A stretch of DNA of 50,045 nt, counting the filler, from Catajapyx aquilonaris (taxonomy: Eukaryota), in assembly GCA_000934665.2 (NCBI GenBank). It is 2 parts of 2 records of this genome, joined end to end, with 100 filler letters (N's around TTAATTAATTAA, not from the genome) between each part and the next. Parts side by side here need not be neighbours in the genome. Positions count along the whole stretch, not along the records: positions 25,081 to 50,045 come from JYFJ02005434.1; 1 more part is not named here. One strand, written 5' to 3'. Made by a program: the position numbers and the translations under genes. Below, piece by piece: positions 643 to 44,520 of this stretch. The notes beneath the pieces are model-generated. The model was not told where the DNA came from, did no database searches, and saw only the letters and a list, made by a program, of their open reading frames with translations. Each line of letters opens with the position of its first letter. Within the stretch, counting starts at the first letter, position 1.

Positions 643-880
643 TGTGTAGTCTGTCGGCGTCGCAGCCGTGAAGTCAGCCACGAGAGTTTTTTTCTTTTCA
701 TTTCCGTGTTGAAAGGAACATTTGATGCGCCAATGGCAAGCAGCGCTGAATTTACCTCCAACGTGTGTACCCAAGGGAAATCATCGGGTGTGCATAGATC
801 ATTTTGACAGGGAGTCACTATTTCCATACACACCACATAAGAGGTGGGCACTGAAGCCCAATGCTGTTCCTAAACTGCAG
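643..880 (+). pseudogene. Degenerate THAP zinc-finger exon (probably transposon-derived)
   Basis: CVVC, a frameshift in poly-T, then FSFPC*...RQW...RVCIDHF...LKPNAVP, matching the THAP C2CH and AVP box; ends at a CAG|gtagg donor-like site. Confidence 0.7.
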
Positions 881-952
881 GTAGGCTTATTCTGGGACAA
901 AGGCCGTACCCAGCGAGGGGCAGGGGGGCAGCTGCGTGAAGACGCAGATCGA

Positions 953-1305
953 GTCGCTGACGAAGTACTTCAAAAAGCGCAAGACATTGCAGTGAAATCG
1001 GAAATATCTGTTCCACGGCTTGCTCACAAGCAAAGACACCGGAGCAATCATCCATCAGACAGTGTTAATGACTACTGGAAGAGTTCACTAATTATACCAT
1101 ATCTTGATTCGCTTATATCATCGTTAAATATACGATTCTCCCAGGAACATACCCCACCTTTTGCCTTGACAAAACTGCATCCTCTAAAAATGAGTGTCAG
1201 TGACTTTTAAAAACAAGCAGAATTCTTTACAGAGTTGTATGAATTGGAAGGTATCATCGCGTAGCTGGACCTGTGGCATAACATGTGGAAGAATAAGGAT
1301 TTAAC
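953..1305 (+). mobile_element. hAT-type transposase C-terminal fragment (copy 1)
   Basis: PRLAHKQRHRSN...DYWKSSLIIPYLDSLISSLNIRF resembles hAT/ZMYM/P52rIPK-type transposases; in-frame stops; inverted copy at 4806-6153. Confidence 0.7.
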
Positions 1306-23504: not shown

Positions 23505-24478
23505 TAATAATTGAACATTTTCGTATGTAGATGAACTGCGGCAAGATAGGGGCGTAAAAAGTTTCAAACTTGTACCAGCGAAAGTTAAGTAATGATCCGT
23601 TTTTGCTCATTTTATGACTGATTTTGCTGATTTTATTTTTAAGTTTTTCCAAGTGGACTTGGCTGTTTTTGATCTGGGCCCCCTCAAATATTGCCCATCA
23701 CATATTCCATACAGGACATTTTACAAGTTGCTTAACGTATCAGTGTTCACAACATTCAATCACACACAACATTCAATCACACACAACATTCTTACCGTCT
23801 TCATTTGTCCTACATTCAACTTTCTGGCTATATGGACTCTGCCTGTTGCTCGGATCACGTGCATGCACACTAAACTCGTACAGTGTGTCTGGTTTGAGAA
23901 AGAGCACTTCCACTTCATGACTTGTGCTGTAATTAATGCTCATTTTAAACAACCATTGAAATGTGCCATTGATTGTTACTTACCTCCGGATGTAACTGAC
24001 AGTGACATTGCTCATTGTTGGAGAATTTGACACAGGGTGGTAGCGTACAGTATAATAACTAACATTATTGGGGCCAGGTGACCACACCAATCTAATGCTG
24101 CTATGGCCTAAGGGTTCAGCCTCCAAATTGCAGGGTGGCTCTAGAACCCCAGGCTGTTCTGATTCATCCCATTCGCTGGCATTTCCTTCAGGGAGAGTGT
24201 GGATCAATTTCATCCCTATTTCTCCCTCACCCTCGTTGTTGAAACCCTGAATTTGAACTTCATACCAATTGTGAGATGCTGTAACATAAACTCGGAATAA
24301 GTCAAATAATAATAGATGTAATCACACTTAAGAAAAACTCACATAAATCCCGGAGCATAAAATTTGATTGGTTCCCTGGTAGACGTATAGGACCCATTAG
24401 CTGCTCGTTCTGCTTGCGATAGTACAATTTGAAACCAGTTGGATTGTGCTCGTTTTCTTTTGGCATTGACCACGTGGC
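7695..24478 (-). CDS. Prtg: Partial spliced gene: fibronectin type III repeats, transmembrane helix and cytoplasmic tail of a protogenin-like (DCC/neogenin family) receptor. The 5' exons and the last exon were not located.
   Basis: Seven exons with GT-AG boundaries and compatible phases: 24343-24478, 23984-24278, 23796-23926, 13166-13353, 12773-12935, 10892-11142, 7695-7811. The joined translation gives FN3 signatures (W..P....GFKLYY; WYEVQIQGFNNEGEG; LKPDTLYEFSVHA; LLSNMRYYMYIRAATRAGLG), a TM segment GVIVGILIGLTCITTCTTVVVC followed by RRR, and the tail motif HLDTK|GGYPNG. The family call is recalled resemblance, not a search result. Confidence 0.8.
10255..10404. mobile_element. PIF/Harbinger (Tourist-like) hairpin MITE
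   Basis: Arms of about 60 bp beginning aggccatttcacaaaa, flanked by taa/tta; related copy at 20187-20336. Confidence 0.8.
10892..11142 (-). CDS. Transmembrane and cytoplasmic exon
   Basis: Acceptor ctcag|GA and donor AAG|gtgaga; 251 nt, phase 1 to 0; hydrophobic stretch followed by RRR. Confidence 0.85.
11564..11770. mobile_element. PIF/Harbinger-like MITE
   Basis: TIR aggccggtatcgacgtaaaa / ttttacgtggatacgggcct; TAA TSD. Confidence 0.75.
11774..12377. mobile_element. Non-autonomous TTAA-targeting TIR element (Kolobok-like)
   Basis: TIR of about 50 bp agggacactccacttaaaatacaagttggcccccaaaaatcggg; TTAA on both sides; AG...CT termini rather than piggyBac CC...GG. Confidence 0.8.
12773..12935 (-). 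CDS. FN3 C-terminal and juxtamembrane exon (LSGLLSNMRYYMYIRAATRAGLG...DYHI)
   Basis: Acceptor tccag|TTG and donor G|gtaggt; 163 nt, phase 0 to 1. Confidence 0.85.
13166..13353 (-). CDS. FN3 exon (VPGAPLEP...IMIGWKSPEATNGQILMYNIYY...KCK)
   Basis: Acceptor ttctag|TA and donor AAG|gtaatc; 188 nt, phase 1 to 0. Confidence 0.88.
13509..13710 (+). mobile_element. Second tRNA-derived SINE family (degenerate)
   Basis: A-box-like tggtctggtgg and B-box gggttcaaatctc, followed by a SINE-like body ending ctctctc. Confidence 0.5.
13990..15490. repeat. Large foldback palindrome with arms of about 450 bp, centre about 14480
   Basis: 13990-14450 is the reverse complement of 14500-14725 plus 15249-15490; the right arm is interrupted by a MITE. 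Confidence 0.9.
14726..15248. mobile_element. PIF/Harbinger-like MITE inserted in the foldback arm
   Basis: TIR aggcccgtttacacgacgactttccta / taggaaagtcatcgtgtaaacgggcct; TAA TSD; the empty site is preserved in the opposite arm. Confidence 0.9.
15996..17037. mobile_element. Foldback element with about 270-bp inverted arms
   Basis: 15996-16265 is a diverged reverse complement of about 16760-17037. Confidence 0.8.
17241..18601. mobile_element. Tc1/mariner-type long-TIR MITE
   Basis: ta|cagggtgtttcctgtaactc ... gagttacaggaaacaccctg|ta; arms of about 200 bp; itself lies inside an outer inverted repeat (17093-17126 / 18663-18698). Confidence 0.85.
17354..18139. mobile_element. hAT MITE nested in the Tc1-like element
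   Basis: cagcgccggattt ... aagtccgccactg termini; 8-bp TSD ggttcata (17346-17353, 18140-18147). Confidence 0.85.
18720..19945 (+). repeat. Tandem diverged repeats: two units of about 310 bp, then about four units of about 130 bp
   Basis: 18720-19017 resembles 19030-19335; aaattc.atgg...acatcctgtag...ttcaaaata...ccgc.aaaaca recurs across 19450-19940. Confidence 0.7.
20187..20336. mobile_element. PIF/Harbinger-like MITE, diverged relative of 10255-10404
   Basis: aggcc...tgtgaaatggcct termini; TTA TSD on both sides. Confidence 0.75.
20690..20880 (-). mobile_element. tRNA-SINE, diverged relative of the 5108/23168 family
   Basis: Same 5' start gaccgaagca, same B-box region and central ggccacagccg.ttccttc.c domain; different 3' part. 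Confidence 0.75.
21401..23139. mobile_element. Decayed pogo-like element
   Basis: ggaccactgtgcccc / ggggcacagtggtcc repeats at about 21401, 21422, 21747 and 23116; ends ggtctcccc|ta. Confidence 0.5.
22161..22458. repeat. About 300-bp loopless palindrome
   Basis: Arms mirror about the centre aacatggccgcc|ggcggccatgtt (about 22310). Confidence 0.9.
23168..23500 (+). mobile_element. Full-length tRNA-derived SINE with (ATT)n tail
   Basis: A-box tggcatagtgg, B-box ggttcgaatcc, (tta)n tail, 14-bp TSD atattaataattga (23154-23167, 23501-23514). Confidence 0.93.
23796..23926 (-). CDS. FN3 exon (STSHEVEVLFLKPDTLYEFSVHARD...CRTNED), absent from the ORF track
   Basis: Acceptor ttacag|C and donor G|gtaaga; 131 nt, phase 2 to 1; canonical L.P.T.Y.F.V.A motif. 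Confidence 0.88.
23984..24278 (-). CDS. FN3 exon (SSHNWYEVQIQGFNNEGEG...PPCNLEAEPLGHSSIRLVW...YTVRY)
   Basis: Acceptor ttacag|CA and donor AG|gtaagt; 295 nt, phase 1 to 2; in frame with both neighbours. Confidence 0.88.
24343..24478 (-). CDS. FN3 exon of protogenin-like gene (ATWSMPK...FMLRDL)
   Basis: Acceptor gagcag|GCC and donor T|gtgagt; 136 nt, phase 0 to 1; FN3 W and YY motifs. Confidence 0.8.
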
Positions 24479-25080: not shown

Positions 25081-26314
25081 CCCTGACCCACTGCAGATTT
25101 TGGGAGAAAAATCCCGGGCGTTTCCCAGCTACTTTGGGTCCTACTAACATGATGTGCATAGTGGTTTCTGAATAACACGCCGAAAGTTTTTTTTTGTTGC
25201 GCTGTGTTATCAGTTTATCCTTCACTAATTTAACATAATTTGCGTTTGGGCCTAACACATGTCTTTCTTTCCACAGAGTCTTTCTCACACTTCTAGTCCT
25301 CAGTGAGTAGTCTTGGGATATCGATATTGATGTGCCTTTCAATTTTTTTGCGTTGGTCAAAATCTGTGTGCGGTCCTCCGAGTATGGGATCTTGGCAATT
25401 ATTGGTGGTCTTAAGGATTTCCCTAGGACATGCACTCTGTCTATGAACACCTTTGACGGGTCAATGTTCAACTTGGTGTGGAACAGCTCGTTTAGCGCCC
25501 TTCTACAGCCTGTCGCCGGCATAGCCGGGTTGGTATCCAAGCCAAAAAATACTAGATTTCCCTCCCTCTGTCTGTCTTCCAGATCCGTTACCTTATCCCA
25601 TAACTGATTAATTTGCTCGTCCTTCTCTCTTAACTCTTTCTTAAGGTCTTGAATTTCCTTCTTATTATGTTCCCTACTTATTGCTTCCCTACTGCCTTCT
25701 ATAAATTTGTCCATTTTGTCCGACATAACCTTGGCCAGATTATCCCATTTGTCTGACATCGTTTTAGCTAAATCGACTACATAGCTCTTTAGGTCTTCCT
25801 GTTGTATCAATTGATCTGGAGTAAGTTCTGACCTTGTCCTTTTTGCTGATACCATCGTAGATAAAGGGGTTGCTTGCAATCCAAGAGGGTTCGGAACCAC
25901 TTCCTTTTCCTTATCGCCTTCTACCCCCGTTATCCTTAAACCCGTGGGGGAGTGTCCGGTTATGGGACCAGGATTGATCTCCACTCCACCTCGCCTCAAC
26001 AACACGTTAATCAGTGTTTGGGGGGTGAACAATTTGACTCCAAGCGTGTCACCCTGCAGGACCCTAGACACACCCATTACACCCTTCCCAGCAAACACAC
26101 ACTGATCCACTTCCTTCTTGAGGCCGCCCTCGTATGCTCGTGGTCCTGTCAAAAAGGCTCCTCCCATCAGCAGCAACAGGCAGAGGATCCATCTCCTTCC
26201 CTTTCCGCTGTCCTTCCGGGCAGCCATGGTCCTTGTCGAGCTGTGTGCTGAACCTGGACCCCTTGGCAGGGCCGCCCGCCACTGGACTACGTCGTTCCCC
26301 ATTTTCTCGACCAA
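25081..26314 (-). mobile_element. Non-LTR retrotransposon (CR1/L2-type) ORF1 with a 2A-like motif, coiled coil and RRM-like domain; truncated by a gap
   Basis: Long ORF with LLRRGGVEINPGP, a heptad coiled coil, then LEDRQREGNLVFFGL, IDRVHVLGK..RPPIIAK and KKLKGTSISISQDYS..TR..RK.L, typical of LINE ORF1. Confidence 0.8.
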
Positions 26315-26929
26315 TGCCGTAAGTAAAATATCAGTATCCGTTCGCCCTGACCATCATTAGGCGGTCATTAACACTGATCACACTCACCCTTTGGTCGGGT
26401 GTGGCCCCTGGGGAGGTCACTACAGCCACTAAACCAGGCCTTTGCCCAGGAGCCCTACCTGCCCTTGCGTCCTGGTTGTGTGTACCTTAGTACGGAGCTC
26501 GATTTTTCCCACTTCTTGCCTGGTCAAGCGTCGGTGGAGAAGTCACAACGTATGTATGAGAACGTCTCCATACAAATTGCCTGAGTGGGTTTTGTCGGAA
26601 GTCATTATATACGCATGTGGCTTTTCTTATGTAGTGATTAGTACTTGCAATTGAAAGGTTTGAGTCATTAAATATTGCCCATTTTTGTGTCGAATTCAGA
26701 TACGCGTTTTTATGATTACATAGGACCATAAAACATTTGCGAAATTTAAAATGCCTTGCCTCCTATCTCAGTTAATAACACCGGTATTGTATAGGGTACA
26801 TGGGTCATGCTGAGTTATTCATAGGCATCATTTTGGACTTTCATCTAATTTGTGTAGTAGTCTCTAAACCAGTGTGTGTTTAGTCAGGCAGAAAGACATG
26901 TTACAAGTGGTGCATGTCAAACGTGTCGT

Positions 26930-27280
26930 GGTGCTGTTGCAAAACGGGTGCATTCATGAGTTTGTGTTTTCGGTGATATTTCAGGCATGTGCAATACGTT
27001 CTTTTGCAAGGCATCAGGTGCTGGGGAATCCCTTCCCTCCTCTTCTGCATGTAAATTAAATGCTCTGCTGTCTTCATCAGATAATGTAGTCAAGGATGAT
27101 CTTTTTTGGCGTGCTCTCCTTGCAGAAATTTAACAGTCGACCTTTGATGCCAGGATAGTGATGTCCTCCATTGCTTCTCAACTTGGAATGTCATGGATAC
27201 ATTCCATATGTGATGAGCACCTGTTTGAGTCTCGCTGAAGTTCAGCCATTTCCTGAGAGAGGTCATTCTCAACTATATTT
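26930..27280 (-). pseudogene. IAP-like remnant (BIR then RING)
   Basis: LRMTSLRKW, S*EAMED and HQRS..KFL (BIR-like), then FTC...LMPCKRTYCTCL...PFCN (RING-like); several frameshifts and stops. Confidence 0.55.
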
Positions 27281-28169
27281 GCTCTTTAGTGGAGTATGTA
27301 CACAGCTTATATTGTCACTCCGAGGGAATTATTTGCTGCGGAAGGCGCATGTTGCGGCTTGCCCTTTCGTGTGACACATGCTTTAAGACTGATGAAACTG
27401 AATGTTACACGTAGCGTCAAAAATATGTAATTGCCAATACTTATCCGTTACACACACCAAATTTCCTCGCACCTCTTTGCACATCAGTAATTCTTTCTCG
27501 AATGCATATTTGGCGTAATATCAAAGCACGACCCTCTGATTACTGTTCTTTCAATCATGTTTACAGCAGTGGCGTCGTGATCAATTATGGCCCAAGTATT
27601 AATATTGGTTCAACGCAACGCTTTTCTTCAAAAGTTACATTACATTTTCGTAAATGTTTACGCGATGATGCCTGATGCGGTGGCCGTCGGCCTGCCTTCA
27701 GCCGCTGCAAGGTAGTTTGCGACTGCCTCCGTAGTCTCTTTCTTATATCCGACGGCTTTTTGCTGATGCCGTTGTACCCTTTCGAGCCTTCCATGGAATA
27801 AGTTGGCCGGCTGCTTGTGCAGTTTATTGTCATGCTCAGGAGCACAGTATGTTGGTCTACATCCTGTTTTCTCCTGTTGTCATTTCCGGTTTTCTGATAA
27901 TATATCCGACCCTCGAACTATTCTCTCAAAATTCTCCTTCAGCACAGCAATACTTCTGTATTTCTGGGACAATTGAGTTTCGTAGAAGATAGGAATATTT
28001 GGGTCGTATTTCCTTCTCAAAACTGACACTGAAAAATCTTATGATGTGCTTGACAGTGGAGATAGTGTTCTGTGGAGTCCCAAGGCAAAAGGCAGTATCT
28101 GCATTTTATTCTAGTTTTTGTTCGCACCTGAATGCGCCTGTGATACTGCACATATGAAGCGCACTGCCA

Positions 28170-28600
28170 TATGGGCGTTCGGCCAATTGGGAGATGGAAA
28201 AAGGTAGTATATGCAGAAAAATAATTCTTGCTTCAAGGCAAAGGGCAGTATATGCAAGCAGCCAATCAACGTCCGGTATTCCGTGACATGATCATCTTAG
28301 AAATGGCCGCCGACTTCCCAGTGTATGATTAATATTATTGCAGTTAATCACCACTTACATTATTTTTGTAATGTGCCTTTCTGTAGATGATGATACTTCT
28401 CAACCCGTTCCAAAATCAAAAGCAAAGCAGTGCAAAAGGGCAAGGACACTGTTATCAACTCAAAATGTTCAAAAAGGTGCCATCACACCATCAAATCACA
28501 CAAGTTGCAGATAATATCATTTTAGCAGGTGTTCCAATAGGTCATACGAACTGTTGGGGACCCTGTAGTAATGCCGGAGATATGGGCATTATTGTAGGCC
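28170..28600 (-). pseudogene. Two degenerate BIR-like repeats
   Basis: PISPALL...NDIICNLCDLMV*WHLFEH...LPFC at about 28425-28590; NTGR*LAACIYC at about 28245-28280. Confidence 0.6.
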
Positions 28601-28959
28601 TATTGTACCCACTAGCGACCCTATGATTGACACTGGTTATTGTCCAGGGTAAATGAATTTTCAAGTATTTAATTAGGAGAACTTTATTCCCTTGGATACG
28701 ATTTATTCAAGCTCCAGCCACCATGCACCAGTCCACCGTCCAGTGTACCCCTTGTGGGTCAGAATACGAGAAGCCACTAGACGTAAAGAAACTAAACTCC
28801 CAAAACTTCTCATGCAGGGCGACATCACTCGATTGACAGTTCCTTCAAGTCACCCTCGCTTGTACTGTACGTGGACCCATCTGTGCTAAATTCGGACATT
28901 ATACTGTATAAATTTGCTACACGTGAGTCGAGGGACGTGTTCAATTGGACATCTGGTGG

Positions 28960-29965
28960 TTTTTGTAATTTGAATTTTCATATTGGCCGCAGATGAGCGA
29001 CATCCCACAGAAACAGCCAACAATTTGTCTTCTGGAAGTGGCTGTTCAGGCACATTTGGGAGTGATATTAGTGAAGCTACATATTATTATTATTATTTTT
29101 GGTTTGCTGCTTTTACAGTTCTCAGCATAATCAGCATTCCCCGTCCTTTGGAGTAATCAGTCTCGCTTTCACAGATCTGCTATTTTCAGCAAGTATGTCG
29201 TTCTTACCATAAAACTTCCGGGATGACTACCTGCACCTGTTGCGAAATGCCCAGAGCGATCAAAAAGTCTGCACCGGATGATGACGGTGCAGAAACATGC
29301 GAAAATATATTTAACAATTTCAGCCTGATGCAATGAAGTTAGCGTGTGTCGGCAGCTTACACTCAATAGTGCCGTTAATGATGCGGCTGTTCCTGCCATC
29401 CACTTCATCACATGTCACATTTTATTGATGAGTCTGTAAACACGGGATTTAATAACTGAGAAAAATTAGCCCCAACATTTACATTCACACATATCAGGAA
29501 CAATTTTGGCTTTCCAGTAAGCGAGGGACAGTTGCCAGGCAGGAACGGATCCCACAGAATGGATGGTTTGTATATACAAACAGTCGCTGGCATGAAGCTC
29601 CCCACTCCTCCCTGAAGTTAAGACTGCCTCAAGTACACACACCCATTTCCTGAAGTCCTTCCTAGACACTGTAAAATATCAACAAAAAATGAATCAGAAA
29701 AAACTAAATGACAATGAAATTAAATGGATATGAAGTCACATGTTCCAACTCACAATTTTCAACCATTTCTTTCACTGTCGCTGCTGACAAGTCGGGGCGC
29801 ACCTTGACTTAAAGTCCCAGACGCTTCAGTCTTATTTCCAGTAGAGGATGTGTGTCTCTTGCATTTTTTTCGTAAGCACTCTGATGACGAGTCAACCACA
29901 TCTGGCATGTGCATAGGTACAGTACATGTGCTGCTCATTCGAACAAGCATGGCTCTCCTACCCAT
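28960..29965 (-). pseudogene. Caspase-like pseudogene (p20 and p10 remnants) with a retained spliceosomal intron
   Basis: LKRLGL*VKVRPDLSAATVKEMVEN, intron 29669-29753, LSRKDFRKWVCVLEAVLTSGRSGELHASD, frameshift, YKPSILWDPFLPGNCPSLTGKPKLFLI, then DEVDG...CKLPTHANFIAS...GSFMV; collinear with the caspase fold. Confidence 0.85.
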
Positions 29966-30869
29966 ATCGTCATTGTGTAGTTTCGATGCATATCCTCACG
30001 CACGTTTCTTGGATTGCTCGAGCAGTTTCGCCAGGATTTTACATTCTCTCAGGATTGCCACAACCAGAACTTCAAAGAGTCCAATGTGCTATGAAATCAT
30101 ATCATCTAGGGGCTGTCCCCTGGTCCGTATAAAGCAAACAAAATGTGGAATTCGGAGCATTATTCTTCCATGTTGGCTGGATATTCTCAGAGTTTGTGAC
30201 AGTTGCATGTGCAACAACCTGGAGTGTGTGATTATGCTTGGGATATGGCATAATCATGGCGAGATCGCTTTCTACTCCTAGACTTTTCGTTCAATAAATG
30301 TATCGCGTAGGTTTTTCATCATCTCTTCGTATTCTGAGGAGCCTCCTTACATCACATAATTAATAATGTTGTGCACAATAATATGTCCCGATGTTTTTTG
30401 AATAGCTCGTTGGTGACAGTGTTCGGGATTTGTCTGTCCCCGAACAGCTTTATGCATCTGGCCTTTATAAGATTTACAGCAGTGGAGTTGGGAGCAAACG
30501 TTGGGGCCACCTGAGTTGCCGGTGCAGTAGTTTCTTTTGATATGGTGTTGGATGTGGCGCAGCTTCTGGGCCGTCGTTATTACCATAACCGTTTTTCAGA
30601 AGTTAATGCTGCATATTTGACGTATATTAAGGTTTCATGTTGTTCAATTACGGTAGGGACTTGAGTGCTGACTATAGGAGGTGGCTGAATCAGCTTCAGT
30701 CGTTCTGAAAATTCCAATTCTGTGATTCTTGAATGAATTATTGTAGCGCATCACATGAAGGGTTTGCAATTCTTTAACCCTGTGGGATATGCCAGTGGTT
30801 TCAGGATTACAAACGTAAGCTCCTTCAGAATCAGAATTTATTGATGTTATTTTTCATTTGGGACACTGA

Positions 30870-32945
30870 AGCCAGATCGCGTTTTGTTGCCACATAAGCA
30901 TAATATGCCCATAATTAAACTCTTCGTCATCTCGCACAGTGATGCGAATAAAATCTGAAATAGACAGGTTCTTTCTCTCCAAGATCTATCGCATATGTAC
31001 TTTTACTGTCTCTTAATTGATACTACACGACTAATACTAAACAGTATCAAAATGACACACCCAGTCACCGGGAAAGCGTCGCGTCGTCGGATCTTAATTC
31101 TACCATCTCGAGCCAATTTCCACGGAGGCTTCGTCCATGAAGATAAAGTTTCGTTGGCCCATTCTTCCGTCCAACTGAATTCCTCAAGAAAGTTGAGACG
31201 GAAATGTAATACTATCGCACGAAGTGACAACCACTCTTGCTAATTAAGCGCCGCGCCTGTAAGATAACAATGTGGAAATTTGTAAATAATACGCCGCAAT
31301 TGTCAGTAGTTATCGCCTCATCTTAATTTATACTAGACGCGTAACAGTATGAGCTGCACAGTTACATGAGCAACAACCTAGAGTTTGTGATTATGGCTTA
31401 ATCATGGTGAGATCGCTTTCTACTGCTAGACATTTAAAAAAAATAAGTGTACTGTCTTGGTTTGTCATCATAGCGTCACTCTGACGTCATCCTAGAGCTT
31501 AACATTCATACGAGTCTCATTCGTAACTGATTTAATAATGTAATGCTCTTGGATGCAACCTATGTTTTGGTCTAGATTACCATGGTGGAGTCACCTGTTG
31601 TCATTCATGTGCTTTTCCGTGGTTGTAATGTTATCACTTATCACCAGTGCTTCACACTGTTCAAATGCGATGTACAGTGTTGTTATTCCAATGCGGCGTA
31701 GCAAGAATGTAATGTACGGATAATTTGTAATATTCTAATATGCAGGTTACCACCCTTTAAAAAAACAGCAATGCACCCACAGAAGAATCATCAGCATTCA
31801 CTATTATTGTGGTATAACTGGCTGAAATGTTTAAATCTTGGTGTCTGACGTCGAGCTGCTTCTTTGCGGATCGTCCTGCGCATTTTCATGCTGTGCTGGT
31901 CCCTCGTCACTTTCCAATATCTGATTTAAATACATGTGTTTTTGTACACATGCAACCAAATGTATTCAACAGTTTGAAATATTTGAGTGCTGAATTGTAA
32001 TTATTAGATTAATTCGTCAATCGATTATTACTTATTACTACCTTTTTGTCGGAATGTTTCCTCGCCGAGCTACATAGTTTGCAAATGGGTTGTCTGTCTA
32101 TTCGTTTTGCCAAGAACCCCTCCCATCTTGACGTCGTAAATGGCGCGATCGACTATAGCACAAGAGTAATGATGCCAGACGACGTGAGTATAGATTTCCA
32201 CTACTTTGCTTTGTGGTTCACTACCGGAGGAGCGAAGAGAGCAATATTGTGTTAGCAGATTTATAACACTGTGGAGGTAAAATAACATGATCATTTCACT
32301 CCCCTACATGATGGTATATCCCGCTGTCCCTTGGTGGTGTAGGTATACGGGGTGATAGACACGTACGCCAGTGGTTCCTTGCGTGGTTTTATCTCCACAA
32401 CGAATTAGCGTGTTTCACATTGTTAGGAAAACGCTTTTCGTTACGTCATAATTTACCCTTTCATAAGCTGGTCACCTGGTTACCTCTGGAATGGCCGTAG
32501 ATTACTAAGTTCTGTTACTTCTACGAGGCAGGTCACTAGATCCGAGTTTGTGGTCGATCGTATTTCTCCCAATTCATTGGTTAGGGCAGGAGGGCGTGGT
32601 TGGTTTTCGTGGCAGAAGAATTCGTCGAGATCTCCATCCCTGATTTGGCATGCAATTTGGGAAACAGACTGATGTCGCTTTTCAGCCCAAGGATCTTAGT
32701 CTTGGTCTGGCAGATGGACCGAACTGGCTTTGAGGACGTACCGAAGATGGGAGTTCTTATCGATTGAGTTTTAATGGGGGGGTCATCATCCCCACGGAAC
32801 ATTCATCAAGACGTTCCCGTACAAGTGTGACCTTCCTGTACGTCCAACACAGTGGAGCCTTCCCTTCTCCATTCTCTGCATTGCAACTCACCTGAGCACG
32901 GAGCACATGAGCTGCTGGCCAAGGAATATTCCATGCCTTCAACCT
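30870..32945 (-). pseudogene. Multi-BIR IAP-like remnant
   Basis: YRLKAWNIPWPAAHV...AENG...RLDE/FRGDDDP (32780-32945); SWQNE*TDNPF (about 32080-32115); TLSSWTKPPWKLARDG (about 31100-31150). Confidence 0.55.
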
Positions 32946-33409
32946 ATATGACTAGAACAGCTGAGTGTAAACAGGTCGTCATCAGTTTCATGTTCTTTGT
33001 TCAGTTGTGAAATTTCAGAGAAAGAGAAGGGAACATGACTCGTTAGAACGTGAAGTAGTGAGACCTTTAGACCAGTGTGAAGTCAGTGGTGGAGGCTGTG
33101 TATTTAGAATACGTTTAAAATACATTGCATTTTATCATAATTTTTAAATGTAATTGTGTCGATTAATCGATATAATCTTGTCATGCAGTGTCTGTTTTTC
33201 GAGTATCGATTATGTCTGGAGGTGCGATATATTTTGGCAGGCCTTTCTTTGGCTACAATATGTCATTATAAATATTCTTTGCACATGAATTGTGTCGAAA
33301 TGTGGAGAGTCAGATAAAAGGCGGAGATGTAAGGGAAAATGGCGCTGGCCTACTCTCCTCCAAAATACACAACAAAACGAAATGCATGATGAGAGTATGT
33401 AGACTGATA

Positions 33410-33518
33410 TGTACTATATCGCTCAAAAACATAGAGACGATTTTGCATTTGATTCAAGTGCAGGCTGCACGTGAGTCAAATGCAAAATCGTCTCTATGTT
33501 TTTGAGTGATATAGTACA
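33410..33518. repeat. About 108-bp palindromic mini-element (copy 2)
   Basis: Same hairpin family as 5954-6061. Confidence 0.85.
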
Positions 33519-33799
33519 ATATGGAAAGAAAATGTGGTTCACACCCTTCCCAGTGGAGGTTCATAATTACGAGCAAAGAACCAGATCATGGTGTGTCGAC
33601 AATAATTAACAAATGACCAATACATACAAAAATACAGTTTTAACATATTCCACGATCTGTCTCCATATTGATGCTGTGGTCCAAGGTGCGTCAAAGATAT
33701 TCACTTCGTCACTTTCCTCTGAGGTCTGAGGGGATGTCGGCGTATATTTTGATAATTTTTTTCCTCTTGAGGTGTGGATAACACTGGTCGTGGGTGTCG

Positions 33800-34560
33800 A
33801 AGGTTGTTGACTGCTCCTGCTGGGTACTGAATTTGTGGTGCATAATTCTCCAGGAGCAAGATCCACCTGACGACCTTTCCAGTTGGGTTTTTCATAGACC
33901 GAAACCTCCTTTGCTGGTTGTGGTCTGTTATCTCATCGCATGAATGGTTTCAGTGCTTACATAACTACAACGGCTTCTCTCGTCACGGAATAGCAGTGTG
34001 AGAAGCGTCCTCGTGTAAACTGGATGAGATGGAATGTGTGTCCCAGATCGTGGTATTTGTGGATTATTGTGTAGCTCTTGATAAAACCTCCGGAAGGTGG
34101 AGTGTAGGGAAATCAATTTTTTTGGTTGGTTATATTCGCTCTTGTCGCATGTAATATTTGAACATATCATAAGCTATTTATTGGGGGAAATCACCATTAG
34201 CTTTCTTTATACCCTTAGTTTGAATGACGATACCTTACTACGGCTGGCTAGTATCCAACCCCAATAAAGGGCATTTCCTCAGAAGGTAATGGCGCAAGGG
34301 TGGTTTTGTTGTGAGCTTATTGTCATTGGGAATCGCACAATGGCTTTTCTTTCGCTTTTTCACTATAATGTTGGTTCCTCGCCGCTATCCAAGGTTGATG
34401 ATGAGTTACCAGACAGACAGCGTCTAAAAGCAAATGTGAGCCACACGATGTTAAGTAATAAGTTTTCTTCCCGCTGTTTGCAATGTTGTTCACAATCAAC
34501 GTATGGTCTCTTAACTCTTTCCATGCCTCAATCTTTCGTCCTCGGGGGACCTTTTGGTAA
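33800..34560 (-). mobile_element. Highly degenerate Ty3/gypsy pol (RT/RNase H) fragments
   Basis: KNPTGKVVRWILLLENYAPQIQYPAG (RNase H end), KKLISLHSTFRRFY (FLGL..YYRRFI-like), LSGNSSSTLD (L.G...FSTLD-like). Confidence 0.65.
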
Positions 34561-37351
34561 GGGATACCATCTGAACTTTGTCAGCATGCCCAATATTTTC
34601 ACTTGACCGGCCTGACGAGAGTTCACATATTCAAATACATAATATAGTTTAATTCGTTTATCAGTATTTTTCTGATCTTCCTGTGTTGGGCCAACCATTC
34701 AGGATCAATTTACTCCGTAATGACATTAAATGCTCACATGTTACAAATGACATTCATGTTACAAGTTGGGCCAGCGTCAAAAAATGTAATTGCCAATACT
34801 TAAGACAGATAATAATCACACCCACAAATTTCCTCGGCCGTTTTGTGCATCCATCTTCTATCTTTAATGCATATTCAGCATATCAAATCACGACCCTCTG
34901 ATTAAGGCGGAGATGACATATTTTAAGGTCAAGTGTCCATGTCGACAGTGCATTTTCTTGGTTCATTGTGGGTGAATATCAGGTGGGAGGTAGGTGTTTA
35001 GAGACGTATGATTTGATGTAAAATGTTATGACATGTCCAAATCTCTGGGCTTGTTGCAGACTCATTCAGTCATGTTCAGGTCTCATAATCCATCTGATTA
35101 TTTGAAGAGCTAATTTCTTCGTTATATTTTTTTTTACACACTTGTGAAACTTTGTTGAGCCATGAGGTTCAGGAATTAATCTGTTGCACTTCCTTTGCTC
35201 TTGTGACTGCTCGTTACAATCGTCCATCATAATCTGTACTAGTGTTTCCTTTTGATGCATCAGACAACTGAACTTCCCCTTGTGATTAGCACCTTACCAG
35301 GTCTCATAGTTTATACCATTAAACATAGTCATTGGGCACCATATGTAACCTTCCTAAGTGTTGAATGATTCAATGATTCATTGAATGATACATTTCACCA
35401 CACTGTCTGATATTTACGTCTTATCATAAGACCACATAATATTGAGTCAAGGTCTCCTTCGTCATTAGTATTTTATACCATATACACATTTGCGAAACAT
35501 TTTCTGCAGACTGATTAAAAGCTGATTACTTGTCACCCGGATATAAGGCGGACTCTGATATTTTTTTGACTCACTGGTTTTTGGTGCTTTCTTCCGATTT
35601 CGCCGTAGGATGTAAGCTATCTCATCTTGTTCAGGTGGTACACCTTTATGCGGTCTCTCTGAATTCTTTCGCACATGTTTTGGAACTGCAGCCTTGATAC
35701 GTACTGTAGATTAAAGAGAAATAACCATGGACTGACATGATCATTTCATTTTCCAGTTTGATCGTATACCACTGGCATGGCACTCCTATACGTCTCTCTC
35801 TCTATCTGTCATGAACTAGTATGTTTTCCTCTTGCACTACGGATATCTCTCCGGAGGGCTGCCTGGATTTACAGCCACTAATAAATTAAAAGGGGAAAAA
35901 AATGCTGTGAATGTGTCACTTATTTTGCATTTATTCAACAGGGCTTTAATGATAAGCGGTGCCATGCAGTAAGTAAATGCAGAAGTGTCAATAATAATTA
36001 ACCTGCTTACGCCGGCGACCCTTATTCGTTTCTGTCATGTCGCATCCGGAATGACCTATTTACTCGAGGTAAAAGCCTCTAGTTTTAGAATATTATTAAA
36101 ACGTTTGATTGTAGTATTCAGGTTACCTAGTTCAGGAGGCACTATTCCTTACTGAACACAGCGGTGGTAAGTGCCGTTATGATACGTATCTGGATTTCTA
36201 TGCTGCTGCTTCTTTTACCTCCCAACCTACCTAGATCGTGGGTAGAATTTTCTCCGAAACATCAAATATGTTCATTGACCACTTTGAGGAAACCTGCCGC
36301 TGCCGTCGGGAGAGTTGGTAATTCATCCAGACCATCGTACACACAACATGTACGTGGGATTCTTTACTGTATTACTGCGTTGAATCGTCAAATTGTGGAT
36401 ATGTGATTAGTTCCTCTGACAGTTAAAGCAACAATTAAGCAACGTGAAGTGAAATTGCTACATACCCGTTATAATTAAACGATGAAATGGCTATTAAATG
36501 CTGCGGAAGAGAAATACAAATTTTTGTACATTTAGTATAGGGCTACTATTGCAAAGATTACTTCACAAGGGAAGTTATTACTCAACTGGGCTAGATTACC
36601 CCATCATATGTAACAAAAGTGATCTTTAATTAGCATCTGTAAAAATCTAGCTGATCTTAATATCCACTACCTCCGACTGTCTAATCATCATCAAGAGAGG
36701 ATGTTAATAGGTGAAAAGGCCATTAAATGTATGATTCTACACCAACATTGAAGGTGAGTTGAGTGTTAGCTACTACTTGTAGTGTAGGGCCACCCCAGCC
36801 GGACAGGTCTTTGGGATAGGAGACAGACTAAGAGAGATGCCAGTCTTTCCTCTCTTCATCTGTCCCACCTTTGCTTCTTCTTACAGCCAGATAGCCATAG
36901 TTGCTTTGGCTTCTTCCAAATAAACCAAACCAAACTACTTGTAGTTTCTGTTCTAGTTGAATGCTACCGGTACTGTATATTATATGTGATAACAGTCAAA
37001 CTCCAAAGCTTATCAGTATACATAATTATGAATCAAGGCCATTTGGGCATTTCACTCATTCGCTGCACTAATCTGTCGCCAATCTTGGAGGGCAGGAGAC
37101 GAACAGCTGTTTTGAAAAGACCAAACATCCACCGACTTCTTCCAGCTTGGTAATGAGCATTGGGCACCTTGTCCAGTAGCGCTTTCTCAAACTCCGAATA
37201 CAACCTGCAAGATTACACGTTGCATATAAACACCATTTACATTGTTGACAGTCATTGTTGTCCACATTTCACCATGATAATGTTTGCACGAGCGCAACTG
37301 AGTGCGCACCCACACGCGCTCAGCTCCATTGTTCCGACAACAACGTTGCCA

Positions 37352-37847
37352 GGGCCCATTTCCACGATGACGGCAGGGAGCATATACTACATAAGAGTCG
37401 CAAACATTCGATTTCCGCGTCTCTTTGTTTGGGGCCGTTGCCAAGGCTGGCGGCCATTTTGAAGTGTGGGTAACGCCAACGAGGTGTAAATAGGGTACAG
37501 GCAAAAATGGGGTCCGCCATCTTTGATTCGCGCGTGTTCTTGTCGTGTAGTTGCCATGGCCGCCCAAACCAAAGATGGCGGACCCTATTTTTTGCCTGAA
37601 CCCTGTTTATACCTCGTTGGCGTTGCCCACACTTCAAAATGGCCGCCAGCCTTGGCAACGGCCCCAAACAGAGATACGCGGACATCGCACCTCTTATGTA
37701 TGCTCCCTGATGACGGTCCTAACGTAAGTAGGAACGGTCAGCCAATCAGAATGCTCCACTCTGCTATTAACGTAACAGCGTAGTAGTGCATTCTGATTGG
37801 CTGGCAGTTCCAACTTCCGTTAGGACCGTCATCGTGTAAATCGGCCT
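37352..37847. mobile_element. Harbinger-like MITE carrying a nested insertion
   Basis: gggcccatttccacgatgacgg ... ccgtcatcgtgtaaatcggcct termini; internal hairpin at 37710-37833. Confidence 0.65.
37374..37709. mobile_element. Foldback MITE with CA...TG ends and 7-bp TSD (P-element-like)
   Basis: cagggagcata...tatgctccctg; arms of about 140 bp; TSD atgacgg (37367-37373, 37710-37716). Confidence 0.8.
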
Positions 37848-38223
37848 TTACTCCACAGGAGACAGGTAATTAAAATTACTTGAAATTAAAAATGATTAAA
37901 ATGAAACACGATTAAAATTAATTAAAATTAATTAGCCAAATTATGAGAACAAATCACACCCGTTGCATCTGAGGTTTGTTCCATAGCATTGAAAACGTCG
38001 CAAACGTCGGCCATTTTGTTCCCCTCCAATCGTAGCGTTGGAATTAAGTGCAGAGCATATCCACTATTCAGAGGGCTTATCACCTATCATTAATAATGCC
38101 AACCGTACATGCTGCGTGAACTGTGGTGCGCACTCGATTGCGTTAGTAAAAAATACTTATATTTAGACGTCCCATGTCTTTCACAGAGTTTTGACCCTGG
38201 TTTCTAATGATGGCCAACTTTAC

Positions 38224-38870
38224 CTTGGTACTTTAAGCTCCCTGGGATGTTGCTTCTCCGGAAATGCCGTCATCACGTGCTGGTGCACCTTCCAGAAGAA
38301 CTTGCCATAAAAGTCCTTCTCCCATTGCGACATCTCGCTGGCCATTTCTCTCGAGTTCTTCCCCTGGTTCTGAAACATGTTGGTGTCCCCTGGCAGGTCA
38401 CCAGGCTCCAACGTGGATACCAGCACGCCGTACTTGTCCATTTCCCTCCTGAGTGACTCTGCCCACGCATATATCCCAGACTTCGAGGCCGAGTATGGTC
38501 CCAAGTTTGGCAAAGAAATATGAGCGCAATTGGACACCAGCACCAGAATCCGACCTTTGGCTTTGATCAATGCTGGGGTCATTTCTCGGGTCAGGACAAT
38601 GGGGCCCAGCACGTTGACCTCCAACTGACTTCGTACCTGTTGTTCCGTTTGCCAGCTGCTTTCGCCGAAAACCAGGACCGCTGCATTGTGGACCAGCCCG
38701 CCCAGGTCCATCTGGTGCTCTTCCAGAAGTTGCTCTACCTGCCCACGGGCCGTCCTGATGCTGTCCTTTAAGGTCAGGTCAAGTCCGACCACGTGCAGGT
38801 CTGGGTGATTGGACAAGTTTGTGGCGCCCGGACCATTTGGGTTCAAGCACGCTGCTATCACTGGCATACC
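38224..38870 (-). CDS. Internal exon of a short-chain dehydrogenase/reductase (D-beta-hydroxybutyrate dehydrogenase/retinol dehydrogenase-like)
   Basis: Open 647-nt exon with acceptor atgcag|GGT and donor AG|gtaaag. SDR motifs: LDLT, GLVHNAA, EVNVLG, GRI...S, catalytic YSASK, LRREM.KYGV.V..LEPG. The N-terminal GxxxGxG exon was not found in the window. Confidence 0.88.
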
Positions 38871-39032
38871 CTGCATGAATCATACAGATATTAATAGAAA
38901 TTGATTTGAATATAGATAATGTTTTCTCATTTATACAGGACGGTTCAGGTCCATTGATAAACTGTTATTTTTTTTTCAGATTCGGATTCAGCTCATCCTA
39001 AATAGGTGTCATGATCAACTGGCCTCTCCCAG

Positions 39033-39294
39033 CGGCCATTTTGTTCCCCTCCAATCGTAGCGTTGGAATTAAGTGCAGAGCATATCCACTATTCAGAGGG
39101 CTTATCACCTATCATTAATAATGCCAACCGTACATGCTGCGTGAACTGTGGTGCGCACTCGATTGCGTTAGTAAAAAATACTTATATTTAGACGTCCCAT
39201 GTCTTTCACAGAGTTTTGACCCTGGTTTCTAATGATGGCCAACTTTACCTTGGTACTTTAAGCTCCCTGGGATGTTGCTTCTCCGGAAATGCCG
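39033..39294 (+). repeat. 262-bp direct duplicate of 38008-38269
   Basis: Apparently identical; includes the last 46 nt of the SDR exon, its donor site and 216 nt of intron. Confidence 0.92.
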
Positions 39295-39297
39295 CCT

Positions 39298-40665
39298 TAT
39301 TGCGAAATCCTAAATTTGAGGCTGCTGGAGTCAAATCTCACGGAGATATAACAATGGAAAGTTCAACAATGACGTCCATATATAGTATTTTTACCTATTC
39401 ACACTGTTCACCCAACACCAACATGTTATATATCGAATGGAAGGTAATGGAGAGAGGAATAACATGGTTACAAAATATTTCACGTAACTCGTAAAACGAC
39501 ATTGAAAATAATTCGCACATGTGATATACGGTATGTGTAAATCACTCTATATTCCCGATAGCAGTAACTCATAACATTATGATTTTAACAAAGTGATATT
39601 TAGGATACAGGGCAATCACATTTGCCTAATATCACATGCAAAACTTCATTGTGATTGATCACGCAGGGTTGGAAATAAAAAATCCATAAAAAATTAATTA
39701 CTCCATTTTGCCGATTTTCGAGCTCAAATTTCTCCAGGTAGGACTGCACCGATTTTCCTTTAGGTAGGTATGTCAATCGCTTCCTTGTATCATACCCTAT
39801 TCAGAAATGCATAAGCCATTCTTTCCACGTGAGCGATAATTGATCGACGAATTTTCAAACGCATGAATCACAATGGATCATGCATTGGATCATGCACTGA
39901 AGCAAAATAGTCATTCCATGGTAAGTCGATTGTAATTTCTCACACTTTTGAAACACGCTCATATATGTTAGTAATGATTACAATATGTATGAATTTTTGA
40001 AGGGTAATATGTACATTTGTCACAGCATAATTATGACATCCTCTGTTTATACGATGCCAACGATGGCAATGATTCCATGCACCACTTTATGCACCCATGC
40101 GTTTGAAAATTCTCCTATCAATTATCGCTTACGAGTAAAGAATGGCTTATGAATTTATGAATAGGGTATGATGCAAGGAAGCGATTGACATACCAAAAGT
40201 CAAAGTCGATCCAGCCTGTCCTACCTCGAGAAATTTGAACTCGAAAATCGGCAAAATGAGGTAATGCATAATTTATGAATTTTTTATTTCCAACCCTGGG
40301 TGATCTATCACAATGAAGTTTTGCATGTGAATTTAGACAAAGGTGATAGCCCTATATCATAAATATCACTTTGTTAAAATCATAATGTTATGAGTTAAGG
40401 CTGTCGGGAATTTAGAGTGATTTACACACAGTAGCCTATCATACAATTATGTGCGGGTTTTTTTTCAATGTCATTTTTCGATTTAAGTCAAATATTTTAT
40501 AACCGCATTATTCCTCTCTGCGTTACCTTCCATTTGATATATAACATGTTGGTGTTGGGAGATCAGTCTGAACAATTCAAAATACTTTATATGGACGTCA
40601 TTGTTGAACTTTCCATTGTTATATCTCCGTGAGATTTGACTCCATCGACCTCGGATTTCGCAATA
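39298..40665. mobile_element. Large foldback element with about 570-bp diverged inverted arms
   Basis: 39298-39865 is a diverged reverse complement of about 40075-40665. Confidence 0.85.
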
Positions 40666-40831
40666 GATTACGGATCCCAACCTACCTGATTTTTTACATT
40701 AAATCAGAAGGGGTCGAGCCACCACCATTTACAGGCGGCTGGATTTATCCGAGTGAACCAGTGCAAGTGTCGATTTTTATCTCATATACTCATTTGCCAT
40801 GGCGACTCATGTTGCTAGCAGTACCACAGGA

Positions 40832-41056
40832 TTATTGTCCATCAACGTACAGTGAAACCTTGGTAATCTGAATTTTCCATATGGAGCCCGGTGTGTCATA
40901 ATCATCTATCTCCCTTCCTTTGAAAATGAACTTGAAGCCCGGTACAGGCACATTCACTCTTAGGCTATAATGTAGCTTTAAAACCCACAATTCCGTAGTC
41001 GTCTTGATACGGAAAGGCATTTCGTCTTGGTCCTCGTCCACAACCCAAATCTTCAT
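40832..41056 (-). pseudogene. Divergent SUMO-like domain lacking the C-terminal GG
   Basis: MKIWVVDEDQDEMPFRIKTTTELWVLKLHYSLRVNVPVPGFKFIFKGREIDDYDTP aligns by eye to the SUMO core (I.LKV..QD..EIHFRVK.TT...KLK..Y..R.GV.....RFLFDG.RI.D..TP); ends VDGQ*. Confidence 0.8.
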
Positions 41057-41639
41057 TGTTGGTGTGCGATTGTGTTGATGTGATGGCGTGTTGACTGGTG
41101 GTTCATGGACTGGTTGACTGGTTGTATGGATGTTTTGACTGGATGCTTGATTGCCAGTGTTTTTAAACTTGATGGTTGCAGTTTTTTGTGTGTGTATTTG
41201 TTCTTAGTGTAAGGGCCCCAACGCAACGGCTGGGTAAGCCCATTAAAAAATTCTTAATAATGAAACCTTGGTATAACTCTCCCCCATTTAATGCTTTACT
41301 TCATACCGCACGGTTTCCCTGGTCCCCAGAGACACTTATCCTGAATAATTATAACGTTAAAATGTGCAGTAATTTATGACTTCACTACAGGGTGGCTCAA
41401 ATTTTGCATCACACAGTCTTCTCCTTTTGCAGACCTTCTTGCACAACAATACTGCTGAAACATAGAATTGCATCATACACTGCTGTCCACAACTGCCCTT
41501 GTTTTACAAATTAATGTGGTTTGATTATAATATGTGGTTATTATTAATTTGTTATGGTTATTATTGAGATGTCAATTAGGAACTGCAGCAATGACAAGAT
41601 TCCTCTTCCACTTATTAAGACCATTTTTCTTTTCTTTTC

Positions 41640-44520
41640 TATTGTTACACGTACAGTTGCCAGTCGCTTACAGGAGTCGCGTTATTCGTGTAATATCTCG
41701 CTACATATGCCGTCACACACTGGATATATTTTTCATCTGCCCAAATCTGGAGAGGTTTATGGTGGACATATTCTACATGTGTGCTGTTCTGCCCATAGAC
41801 AAGCGCATTGTGAGGAAATTGCCAAAACTCACTGATGTTGGCGTTAATTATTTTTCCACCAACTGAAGATGTAATGATCCTGAAGATTGTGATGGACACA
41901 GTAGGAGGCCAGCTGGACAGACTACGAATAGATTTCACAAGTTATTTGGAGCAGGACTCCTTCTTAGCCCTTGGACAGTGCCCCTAGCTGGAGGTAGGAT
42001 TGGTTGCGCCATTTCGATCATGTGTTTCCAAATCCTGAGTTTGAGTGCAAACCCTGGTGTTATAGGAAAGTGTTGCCTCAACCTTCTGTTTTGATAGATG
42101 TATGATAGAAGTACGGTATTAGTCATCTGGTGTCATTCATCTGGTGTAATTCGTGGTACTCCTTTGTGGCATGTGGAGTGCTGACAGTCCCATTTTCTCC
42201 GTTGGTTATTATCGTCGCTCTTGTCGCATGTACGACGCAATTGACAGTTATTGACTTTGTTCAGTGTCAAATGTAGCATATTGGATACTGGATTGATAAC
42301 GTACCGGAAAATGCAAGCCTTGCTCGACGACTCGCCTCTGCCAAGGGTCTCTTTACGGTAGAAATGCAAAATGGAAAGAGCATGAGTGAGTCCCATGGTG
42401 CAACGGGATTTCAGTGGCCATGGGCCTGGAGGGTTCCTGAACATTTCTGACCGTCTCCACTTCTCCCTTGATGTGGTTGAGCTAAAATATTCGAGATAAA
42501 AAGAAAATAAATAAGAAAGTGGGAATAGCATTTTCTTCCCCTGATTGTTGCCTTCCATATCATGCTGAATCTTCTAATTAGCGTACAATCAGAGCGAGAA
42601 ATGTAGATCATTCGGCGGCCGCATTGGTATTAACATCGTCAATCATTGGGAACGCTGTTAAATCTTTGCTAAGTTTTATTTCTTTATTTATTTTGGCTAC
42701 CCCGTATCAGGGCCAGAGGCCCTCTTAGGGGGACAATCTTTGCTTAGTGTTGAATCCTTTCTTCATTTTACGACACGGGCTGATATTACGTCATAATTAT
42801 CATAAGACCACATATTACATTTGCTGCAGAGTGTGATTAAATGCTGATCAGTGTCACCCGGATATTATGTGACTTTTTCTCTTCTTTCAATATTATTTTC
42901 CCTCGATGTGACACAATGTTACAGTATGTGGTGTCACCTCACAAGTCAGTCATTAAATATTAGGTATTCCTTCATATTTGTGCTTCCAATGGGATATTTA
43001 TACGGGATAAATAATTTGTGAGTGTAGAAATAATTGTAGTTTGAAGAGAGCCTCTGTTGTTATTCTGGCCTCCAGCTGTTATATATTCTCTGGGAATTGA
43101 TAAATGGTTCTGACGACGATGCAGTTAATTCTTCGTATATTTCGGTCCGGTTGTGCGACTTTATGCCGTCGCTCTGGGGCATTTTACGCGGGCTCCTTCA
43201 CATAGTGCACGTTAGTCACGTTTCAACATATTGAAAATGAATGTATGAGCACGAATACTGGAAGCGTTTCTTCTGATAGCACCGTACCTGGTGACATTAT
43301 CCTTCCATACCTCATCATAAAAGTCTAAAAATCGTTTTCGCCCTTCGTTTCTACCAACTACCTTGTCACATTGCAAATATCACCCAGTTGTCAAGAAGAC
43401 TATTTTGCCGTCACAGTCAGTGTGAGGGCAACGAGTTGTTTGGTTACATAATTGATGGATTGAGTCAAGGTTTCCCTCTTCATTATTTTATAGGATTTAC
43501 ACATTTGTAAAACATGCTGGGGAGTTATTAAGAGATACGTACTTGTCTCCAGGACTTGAATCTGAAATTTTCCTGTCTCCTCTTAATGGTGGGGGATGGG
43601 GGAATTCAGCCCGTTACAATGTATGGCGGCATTTCCGGTGATGGGTGTTTGTGTAGGCAAGTGTGGGTGCTGAGTGGATTTTTCCAAGCCAGTATAAGTA
43701 CTACCAGGTGGCCCAGAAAGGGTGGAGAGAGTTGAATTTGTCTGCGATGTCTTGCTGAAATCTTTCCCCGTGTTAGTCTGACAAGTCACCGCAATTTTCT
43801 GGGAAATATTCCAGATGCGAATGCATAATATTGTGAGGGCCTCCGGATACACTGAGCCAAGGAGCCTAAAATCATGCTAAGGTTACCATTGGAACAGACC
43901 CAATCACATTTGTTTGAGTTCTACCTCCACAAGAGAGTTCACCCCACTTGCCAGCAAATGCTGCAAAATGTCACTGGCAGCACCGCCATCACAGGCTTTT
44001 GTTTTGTTGTTGTTGTTCAAAGTGAGATTGTCACTTTCACTTCACTTCACTCACACACCTGCCCAAGATTTGTCCATTGTTACACTATTCCCAAAATGTT
44101 TCCTTACCTCTAACAACATGTGCTCACTTATTACTTAACTTATATTTAACATTTTCTTAATAACCACATCACTAAGACTAGAGACTTGAGACGAGAGACT
44201 TGGAGTGAACCTGCTTTTCAAAAACATTAAAAATGCAAAAGCTGAGACTGGCGGTTCTTGGAATTGTTAGCTACGTGTATGGCATTTCACACACAGAATC
44301 TTAATTGTCGTAGCCAGTCAGGGTCAATACGGGTGATGGGGTTGTTGTTGATGCACTGACATAGGCCTATTACCAAATAGGCCGAGTTGGCGGCAAATGT
44401 CATGGCGGCGGAAAATTTAAGTCCCTTCACGGTAGAAATGGACACGGCTCCAGTGAGTCCCATGGTGCGACGGATTGTTCAATGAAATGAACACTTGTGC
44501 GATGTTTGCCCGGATTCAAT
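41640..44520 (-). pseudogene. Second block of degenerate BIR/RING-like remnants
   Basis: PGSTYTGLEKSTQHPHL (about 43660-43710); GRSGDGQKC and PWDSLMLFPFC (42360-42470); PWDSLEPCPF (about 44435-44465); LVYGQNSTHVEYVHHKPLQIW (about 41740-41805); shares DNA repeats with 35417-35545. Confidence 0.5.

Follow-up and report, generated by a model that had tools for sequence, protein, structure and literature searches.

Caspase-like DNA at positions 28960..29965 of the window, by which we mean the whole analysed stretch of 50,045 nucleotides (filler included) from Catajapyx aquilonaris, was interpreted in an earlier note as an intron-containing caspase relic without either catalytic motif, and as a decoy pseudo-caspase that had existed at this place before it decayed. 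The locus thus raises the question of where the catalytic residues were lost: in a complete gene at this position, through random decay of a copy, or in another gene from which the DNA was derived. The last of these is very probably the answer. The window contains a dead 510-base fragment of an intact, spliced gene located on contig C1080 of the same genome (G000), and the product of this source gene, which lacks the catalytic His and Cys, is predicted to be a decoy partner of active caspases.

Extent and structure of the caspase fragment

The peptides by which the caspase scaffold had been recognized, LWDPFLPGNCPSLTGKPKLFLI and KLPTHANFIA, as well as VLTSG at the SHG site, were all found on the minus strand, in different frames and with stop codons in between. 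A DNA search of window positions 28900-30100 against the same genome returned three matches: the window itself, C1080, and a short repeat in the flank. The match to C1080 (locus L002) extends over 510 bases, and the relic is real and not a chance likeness, but only 29333-29842 is caspase-derived. The likeness begins at 29842 and stops at 29333, in each case within an exon. Neither flank (28960-29332 and 29843-29965) aligns with the source gene, and about half of the interval first described is therefore not caspase. The same flanks (29843-29965 reads MGRRAMLV...) were considered as the missing caspase ends and rejected, as neither has an alignment to the source or a protein match. Positions 29917-30112 match a different short contig. 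The fragment is composed of the following parts.

29333..29842, minus strand: whole caspase-derived fragment, a copy of G000:C1080, L002 about 1501-2012 (89% identity, E 2.7e-193)
29754..29842, minus strand: 3' portion of source exon 2 by alignment, with TAA at 29811-29809; the parental letter at 29811 is visible in a spliced contig
29669..29753, minus strand: first intron, 85 nt (83 nt in the source gene), GT..AG, phase 1; skipped by a source-gene contig from public run X1, with place and phase as in three active paralogues
29489..29668, minus strand: copy of source exon 3 by alignment, with Ser (TCA, 29615-29613) at the His position and a 4-nt insertion at 29571-29574
29434..29488, minus strand: second intron by alignment, 55 nt (63 nt in the source gene), GT..AG, phase 0; place and phase as in three active paralogues, bridged by no contig
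29333..29433, minus strand: 5' portion of source exon 4 by alignment, with His (CAT, 29430-29428) at the catalytic-Cys position, where the source has Leu

The 85-nt GT..AG intron had been delimited correctly, its boundary being identical to one skipped by a spliced public contig aligned to the fragment. The proposal of in-frame splicing is correct as regards the boundaries but not the frame: a TAA lies upstream of the intron, the insertion in the exon-3 copy shifts the reading frame, and a second TAA (29424-29422) follows in the exon-4 part, giving three disabling lesions in all. Transcripts across 29669-29753 had been suggested as a check, and the sole X1 contig over the fragment (85% likeness) does skip the intron; it differs in 15 letters, however, and is without the insertion, and it therefore belongs to the source gene and not to the copy. 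The sequence CVNVN, previously taken for the QACxG site, is in reality the Cys that ends the exon-3 copy in KLFLIC (Gln in paralogues) followed by read-through into the second GT..AG intron, 29488-29434; after splicing the site reads C/THQ and a stop (the slash marks the exon joint). The exon-4 part also encodes DEVDG at 29409-29395 (DAVDG in the source).

At its 5' side the fragment lacks the start of the source gene together with the first half of exon 2, and at its 3' side the complete last exon; neither the alignment over 1.7 kb nor a protein search detected any remnant of the first or last source exon near it. No A-C-x-G coding match lies nearby, the sole match in the window being located 17 kb off on the opposite strand, and the window copy is absent from the 53 genome matches to the caspase family. 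Its source is a single gene. A protein search with source exon 3 gave 16 matches, among which C1080 is 100% identical, two window pieces are 71-72% identical and the other 13 are 42-56% identical; with the last source exon as query, C1080 is the sole match. A partial gene that retains its introns and has a single identifiable source elsewhere is an unprocessed dispersed gene fragment, and the two retained introns bear out the earlier view that copying took place at the DNA level rather than by retroposition.

The source gene and its lost active site

The source gene on C1080 starts with an ATG at 49668, and its stop codon ends at 50955. In L002 its structure is as follows.

1024-1079, 1369-1589, 1673-1848, 1912-2035, 2103-2311: source exons 1-5 (own annotation of joints)

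The exons are separated by four GT..AG introns and join into 261 codons without a stop, a predicted joining in which two joints are bridged by contigs and two are predicted. Homology to the caspase domain is established by the PF00656 score of exons 3-4, 27.8 bits against a cut-off of 21.4, and 24 PDB sequences match, all of them named caspase. The gene sits between two caspase genes with intact His and Cys. Contigs of run X1 that are 99% or more alike skip the L002 introns 1590-1672 and 2036-2102, and one X1 contig spans the Ser codon at the His position without any other letter; the first and third introns, including the joint at the Cys site, are bridged by no X1 contig. X1 is a single public run of a kind not on record, with a depth of 3-8, and stretches without contig cover, in the source gene as in the window, are not read as silence. 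The skipping of two GT..AG introns points to RNA as the probable nature of the run. With open exons, and with contigs of the single run X1 skipping two introns out of four, the source gene is intact and appears to be expressed; by its predicted exon structure it is a real pseudo-caspase, still open.

Both copies lack the residues that define an active caspase (C14A). At the His position, Ser is found in the window and in the source, which both read VLTSG, and at the Cys position the window reads C/THQ and a stop where the source reads C/TLQE, so that neither has the catalytic Cys of QACxG. The 13 paralogue exons (the 16 exon-3 matches minus the source itself and the two window pieces) all have His and all have the terminal Gln, where the source has Ser and Cys. 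In all 13 paralogue loci an A-C-x-G coding match follows on the same strand within about 550 bases downstream, and in the source locus there is none.

The register of the Cys site is set by the introns. The second intron of the window, 29488-29434, corresponds to L002 1849-1911, and in three active paralogues compared base by base (the two C1080 neighbours and one on contig C8534) a phase-0 intron lies between the Gln and A-C-x-G. The same three have a phase-1 intron ahead of the His exon, at the same place as in the source. The comparison with host caspases proposed in the earlier note therefore places both introns of the fragment at the same position and phase as in active genes. These common places and phases fix the alignment: IC/TLQE of the source stands for IQ/ACQG, with TLQ aligned to ACQ. 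At the codon for the catalytic Cys the source consequently has Leu, and the window has His. The possibility raised earlier, that a second intron after KLFLI supplies QACRG, turned out to be half right, in that the intron is present but QACRG does not follow it.

The absence of the dyad was thus not produced by random decay of the copy, as the intact source carries the identical change from His to Ser and likewise lacks the catalytic Cys. As source and copy both lack the dyad, the loss predates copying, and of the two sequences it is the source alone that has kept an open frame since then.

Ancestry, anatomy and selection

Exon by exon, the source is 37, 52-55, 29 and 33% identical to the C8534 paralogue. 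In exon 3 its identity to C8534 is 52-55%, compared with 49 and 41% to the two genes beside it, and its last exon is preceded by an intron that C8534 also has and the left neighbour lacks. These two features indicate descent from the effector-type QACQG clade, and not from the adjacent genes, as the likely ancestry. All intron places and phases of the source are those of C8534, whose His and Cys are intact, and the source thus has the makeup expected of a decoy, a duplicate of an active caspase with the catalytic residues replaced.

Gaps of the source relative to this paralogue are whole codons only. Eleven residues are missing before the first substrate-binding Arg, which is itself kept; six are missing at the start of the last exon, which takes out the Arg after Trp; and five are missing ahead of the last strand, which is kept. 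The three gapped stretches are presumably the caspase loops L1, L3 and L4 around the active site, and the final strand is what we take to be the dimer strand. About 37 residues precede the domain (the first exon being predicted), and the tandem death effector domains characteristic of cFLIP are absent from this predicted frame, upstream of which a further exon may lie. Two DxVD/G sites are present in the source protein, one before the domain and one in the linker.

A HMMER search of 1.84 billion representatives with the source gave 378 hits. The best 150 of the 378 are 29-58% identical, and none of these 150 is an evident orthologue. Word-based protein searches with exon 3 (15 candidates) and exon 5 (39 candidates) yielded no scored match, which is weak evidence. 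The named database relatives come from crickets, locusts and a spider. In P0006 from Anabrus the first domain has Ser at both catalytic positions, and P0123 from Schistocerca has Ser at the Cys position; with His or Cys replaced in several of 24 hit sequences, degenerate effector-type caspases recur in arthropods. P0006 (Anabrus simplex, XP_068084304.1) is a 1011-residue model with three tandem caspase domains, the second and third intact, and could be either a fused gene model or a built-in decoy. Within G000 the caspase family is large, with 53 matches on about 17 contigs, in tandem clusters. Contig C1587 (L004) has a paracaspase-like frame with an Ig domain, which we take to resemble MALT1.

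The copy and the source differ in their state of preservation: the copy has three lesions (366 coding bases), the source none (786). By a hand calculation, equal rates would place all three in the copy in about 3% of cases, a figure that is flattered by the source having been picked as intact. The dN/dS check put forward in the earlier note was carried out pairwise as a hand count: over 121 codons there are 20 replacement differences (two of them stops) and 4 silent ones, with no sign of constraint on the parent. With a frozen source and equal mutation in the two copies, silent changes should make up about 9-10 of the 24 differences, and a count of 4 or fewer has P about 0.02. There are accordingly too few silent differences, and either the copy mutates faster or the source itself is loosely constrained. 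The pairwise differences as such fit neutrality and demonstrate no amino-acid constraint on the parent. Six of the seven differences that can be polarised by C8534 are new in the copy (by eye, and in small numbers), which favours faster change in the copy.

Origin of the fragment and role of the source gene

The flanks of the fragment are a mosaic of low-copy repeats. With the two flanks as queries, scattered repeats turned up, but neither an empty site nor another copy of an element with the caspase piece was found. No long or near-perfect inverted pair encloses the fragment among the 25 longest of 90, although decayed terminal inverted repeats could escape such a comparison. A second intron-bearing piece of a host gene, from a short-chain dehydrogenase (SDR) gene, is located 6.5 kb from the caspase piece, so that two host-gene fragments with a source occur in about 10 kb of the window.

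36380-39030, minus strand: copy of the end of an SDR gene (last exons, intron, 3' end), 86-98% identical to G000:C859 about 40540-43086

X1 contigs cover the SDR piece with 1-2 other letters, and may come from the 98%-identical source. That C859 might carry one large element in a further copy was considered and discarded, as the likeness ends at window position 36380 and upstream of the SDR exon. Positions 38001-38270 and 39030-39295 form a direct duplication of about 265 bases that flanks the main SDR exon (by eye), and X1 contigs connect 37340-37979 and 37352-39118 across this area. Adjoining the SDR piece, a large foldback-like inverted-repeat element occupies 39312-40658. Its arms, several hundred bases long, are 87-91% complementary, and one of them also occurs upstream of the SDR exon on C859.

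Other features of the window include a 123-codon open frame with a SUMO/ubiquitin-like domain (40835-41203, minus strand; Pfam Rad60-SLD, E 3.8e-7) beside a low-copy repeat family, and a 109-base near-perfect palindrome (33410-33518), a high-copy MITE-like element for which, out of 745 candidates, about 40 copies were scored, at 89-98%. A 424-codon open frame (25081-26353, minus strand) has no Pfam match over the cut-off and presumably resembles a LINE ORF1, a likeness judged by eye. The Pfam scan of the window, which covered ten ORFs, also detected a THAP domain piece (713-1207, plus strand, E 1.3e-6) and a fibronectin type III exon (23983-24321, minus strand, E 3e-7). Diverged internal duplications are present within the flanks of the caspase fragment at 27400-27560 / 34760-34905 (7.36 kb apart) and 30199-30287 / 31358-31435 (1.15 kb apart).

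Repair from a non-allelic template is the origin favoured for dispersed gene fragments in the available text of two reports (PMC8277862; bioRxiv 10.64898/2026.08.09.743762), and we infer the same for the present piece, which would have been pasted in as DNA during break repair, by template switching, into a repeat-rich stretch, and would have drifted neutrally since arrival. As far as the available descriptions go, it resembles the tinkering loci of Drosophila and single-copy Pack-TIRs in being a DNA-level copy of a host gene shorter than 2 kb, in single copy, in a repeat-rich stretch with a second piece, but it differs from them in that outside the fragment nothing is shared with the flanks of the source, no terminal inverted repeats around it were found among the longest inverted pairs and no transcript of its own was seen.

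The claim that this position was once home to a decoy gene which then decayed is not borne out, as only an internal piece with both ends missing is present. The decoy idea itself holds for the parent gene, as a predicted function, and not for a decoy that decayed in the window: two stops, a 4-nt insertion and the loss of both ends distinguish the fragment from the intact gene that a decoy would need to be. With so much of the source gene missing at either end, it was most likely never a complete gene. That a complete decoy gene once stood here and later lost its ends is accordingly quite improbable: the shared dyad loss, both introns, the DEVDG of the copy and one site with perhaps the older state (Gly, as in C8534) would suit it, and are outweighed by sharp ends inside exons, the absence of any first- or last-exon trace in 1.7 kb or by protein search, and another truncated host-gene copy in the region. 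More improbable still is a small-RNA locus of which the fragment would be a used part, its one-strand pieces giving RNA that could silence the source gene. All four coding pieces in 25081-41203 (the long ORF, caspase, SDR and SUMO-like) are indeed on the minus strand, but four on one strand would occur by chance in 1 case out of 8, the 11% divergence from the source would weaken pairing, and the only contig over the fragment bears source-gene letters.

A more serious, though still unlikely, alternative accepts the fragment as described above and takes the source for a transcribed but dispensable duplicate in slow decay, without a regulatory role. The excess of replacement over silent changes (20 to 4, copy versus source), the lack of an orthologue among the best 150 of 378 hits and transcript support from one low-depth run are what such a gene would give; multiple changes in the His codon and in the Cys-motif codons next to a well-kept scaffold, gaps of whole codons throughout, GT..AG at all four introns, no lesion in the source versus three in the copy, and the six of seven polarisable differences that are new in the copy argue against it. 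That the source is an unusual active protease, using the Cys two residues before the normal position, is the least credible proposal. Both copies do have Cys in place of the Gln that ends exon 3, but the His is lost too and the loop with the second substrate-binding Arg is deleted by alignment; the terminal Gln of caspases lines the pocket and is not positioned to attack.

Insect caspase-like decoys, Aedes aegypti CASPS18 among them, were reportedly described by Bryant et al. in 2010. In the available text of three reports (PMC7768685, PMC4840389, PMC3141678), decoy caspases are inactive duplicates that regulate other caspases in several insects, and CASPS18 enhances CASPS19. According to these descriptions CASPS18 is, like the source gene, a duplicate of an effector-type caspase with critical residues replaced; the source differs in lacking both dyad residues and three loop stretches and in that its regulatory role is a putative one, and the window copy differs in being a dead fragment and no decoy. 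FLIP(L), as the available part of PMC7586951 describes it, has both His and Cys replaced (by Arg and Tyr) and works as a heterodimer with an active paralogue. To that extent cFLIP(L) resembles the source gene, in which both dyad residues are replaced and for which a heterodimer mechanism is proposed here, but cFLIP(L) has two death effector domains and derives from the initiator caspase-8/10, while the source is of effector type in both sequence and introns and is predicted to have a short N-terminus. Judged by these features, the source gene is of independent origin from cFLIP(L).

By analogy with these proteins, we infer that the source gene regulates a partner. Its protein would fold as a caspase and be unable to cut, would either use the kept strand to pair with an active caspase or be cut at the two DxVD/G sites, and might thereby tune caspase activity. 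A more far-reaching reading, which we regard as doubtful but worth stating, is that the source is a selected arthropod pseudo-caspase of effector type, a FLIP-like cleavable allosteric partner without death domains that arose independently of CASPS18, shedding the dyad and three loop stretches while keeping the dimer strand and the two DxVD/G sites, and that the window is a fragment-collecting hub (tinkering locus) outside Drosophila.

The fragment itself is ordinary genomic debris. It serves as a built-in control, in that it dates the loss of both residues and displays the unselected fate, with three lesions in 366 coding bases. If the predicted decoy on C1080 regulates its neighbours, it would be another independent invention of a caspase decoy, with the dyad and much of the loop bundle gone, and would make it possible to test cleanly if the dimer interface by itself suffices to tune an effector caspase.
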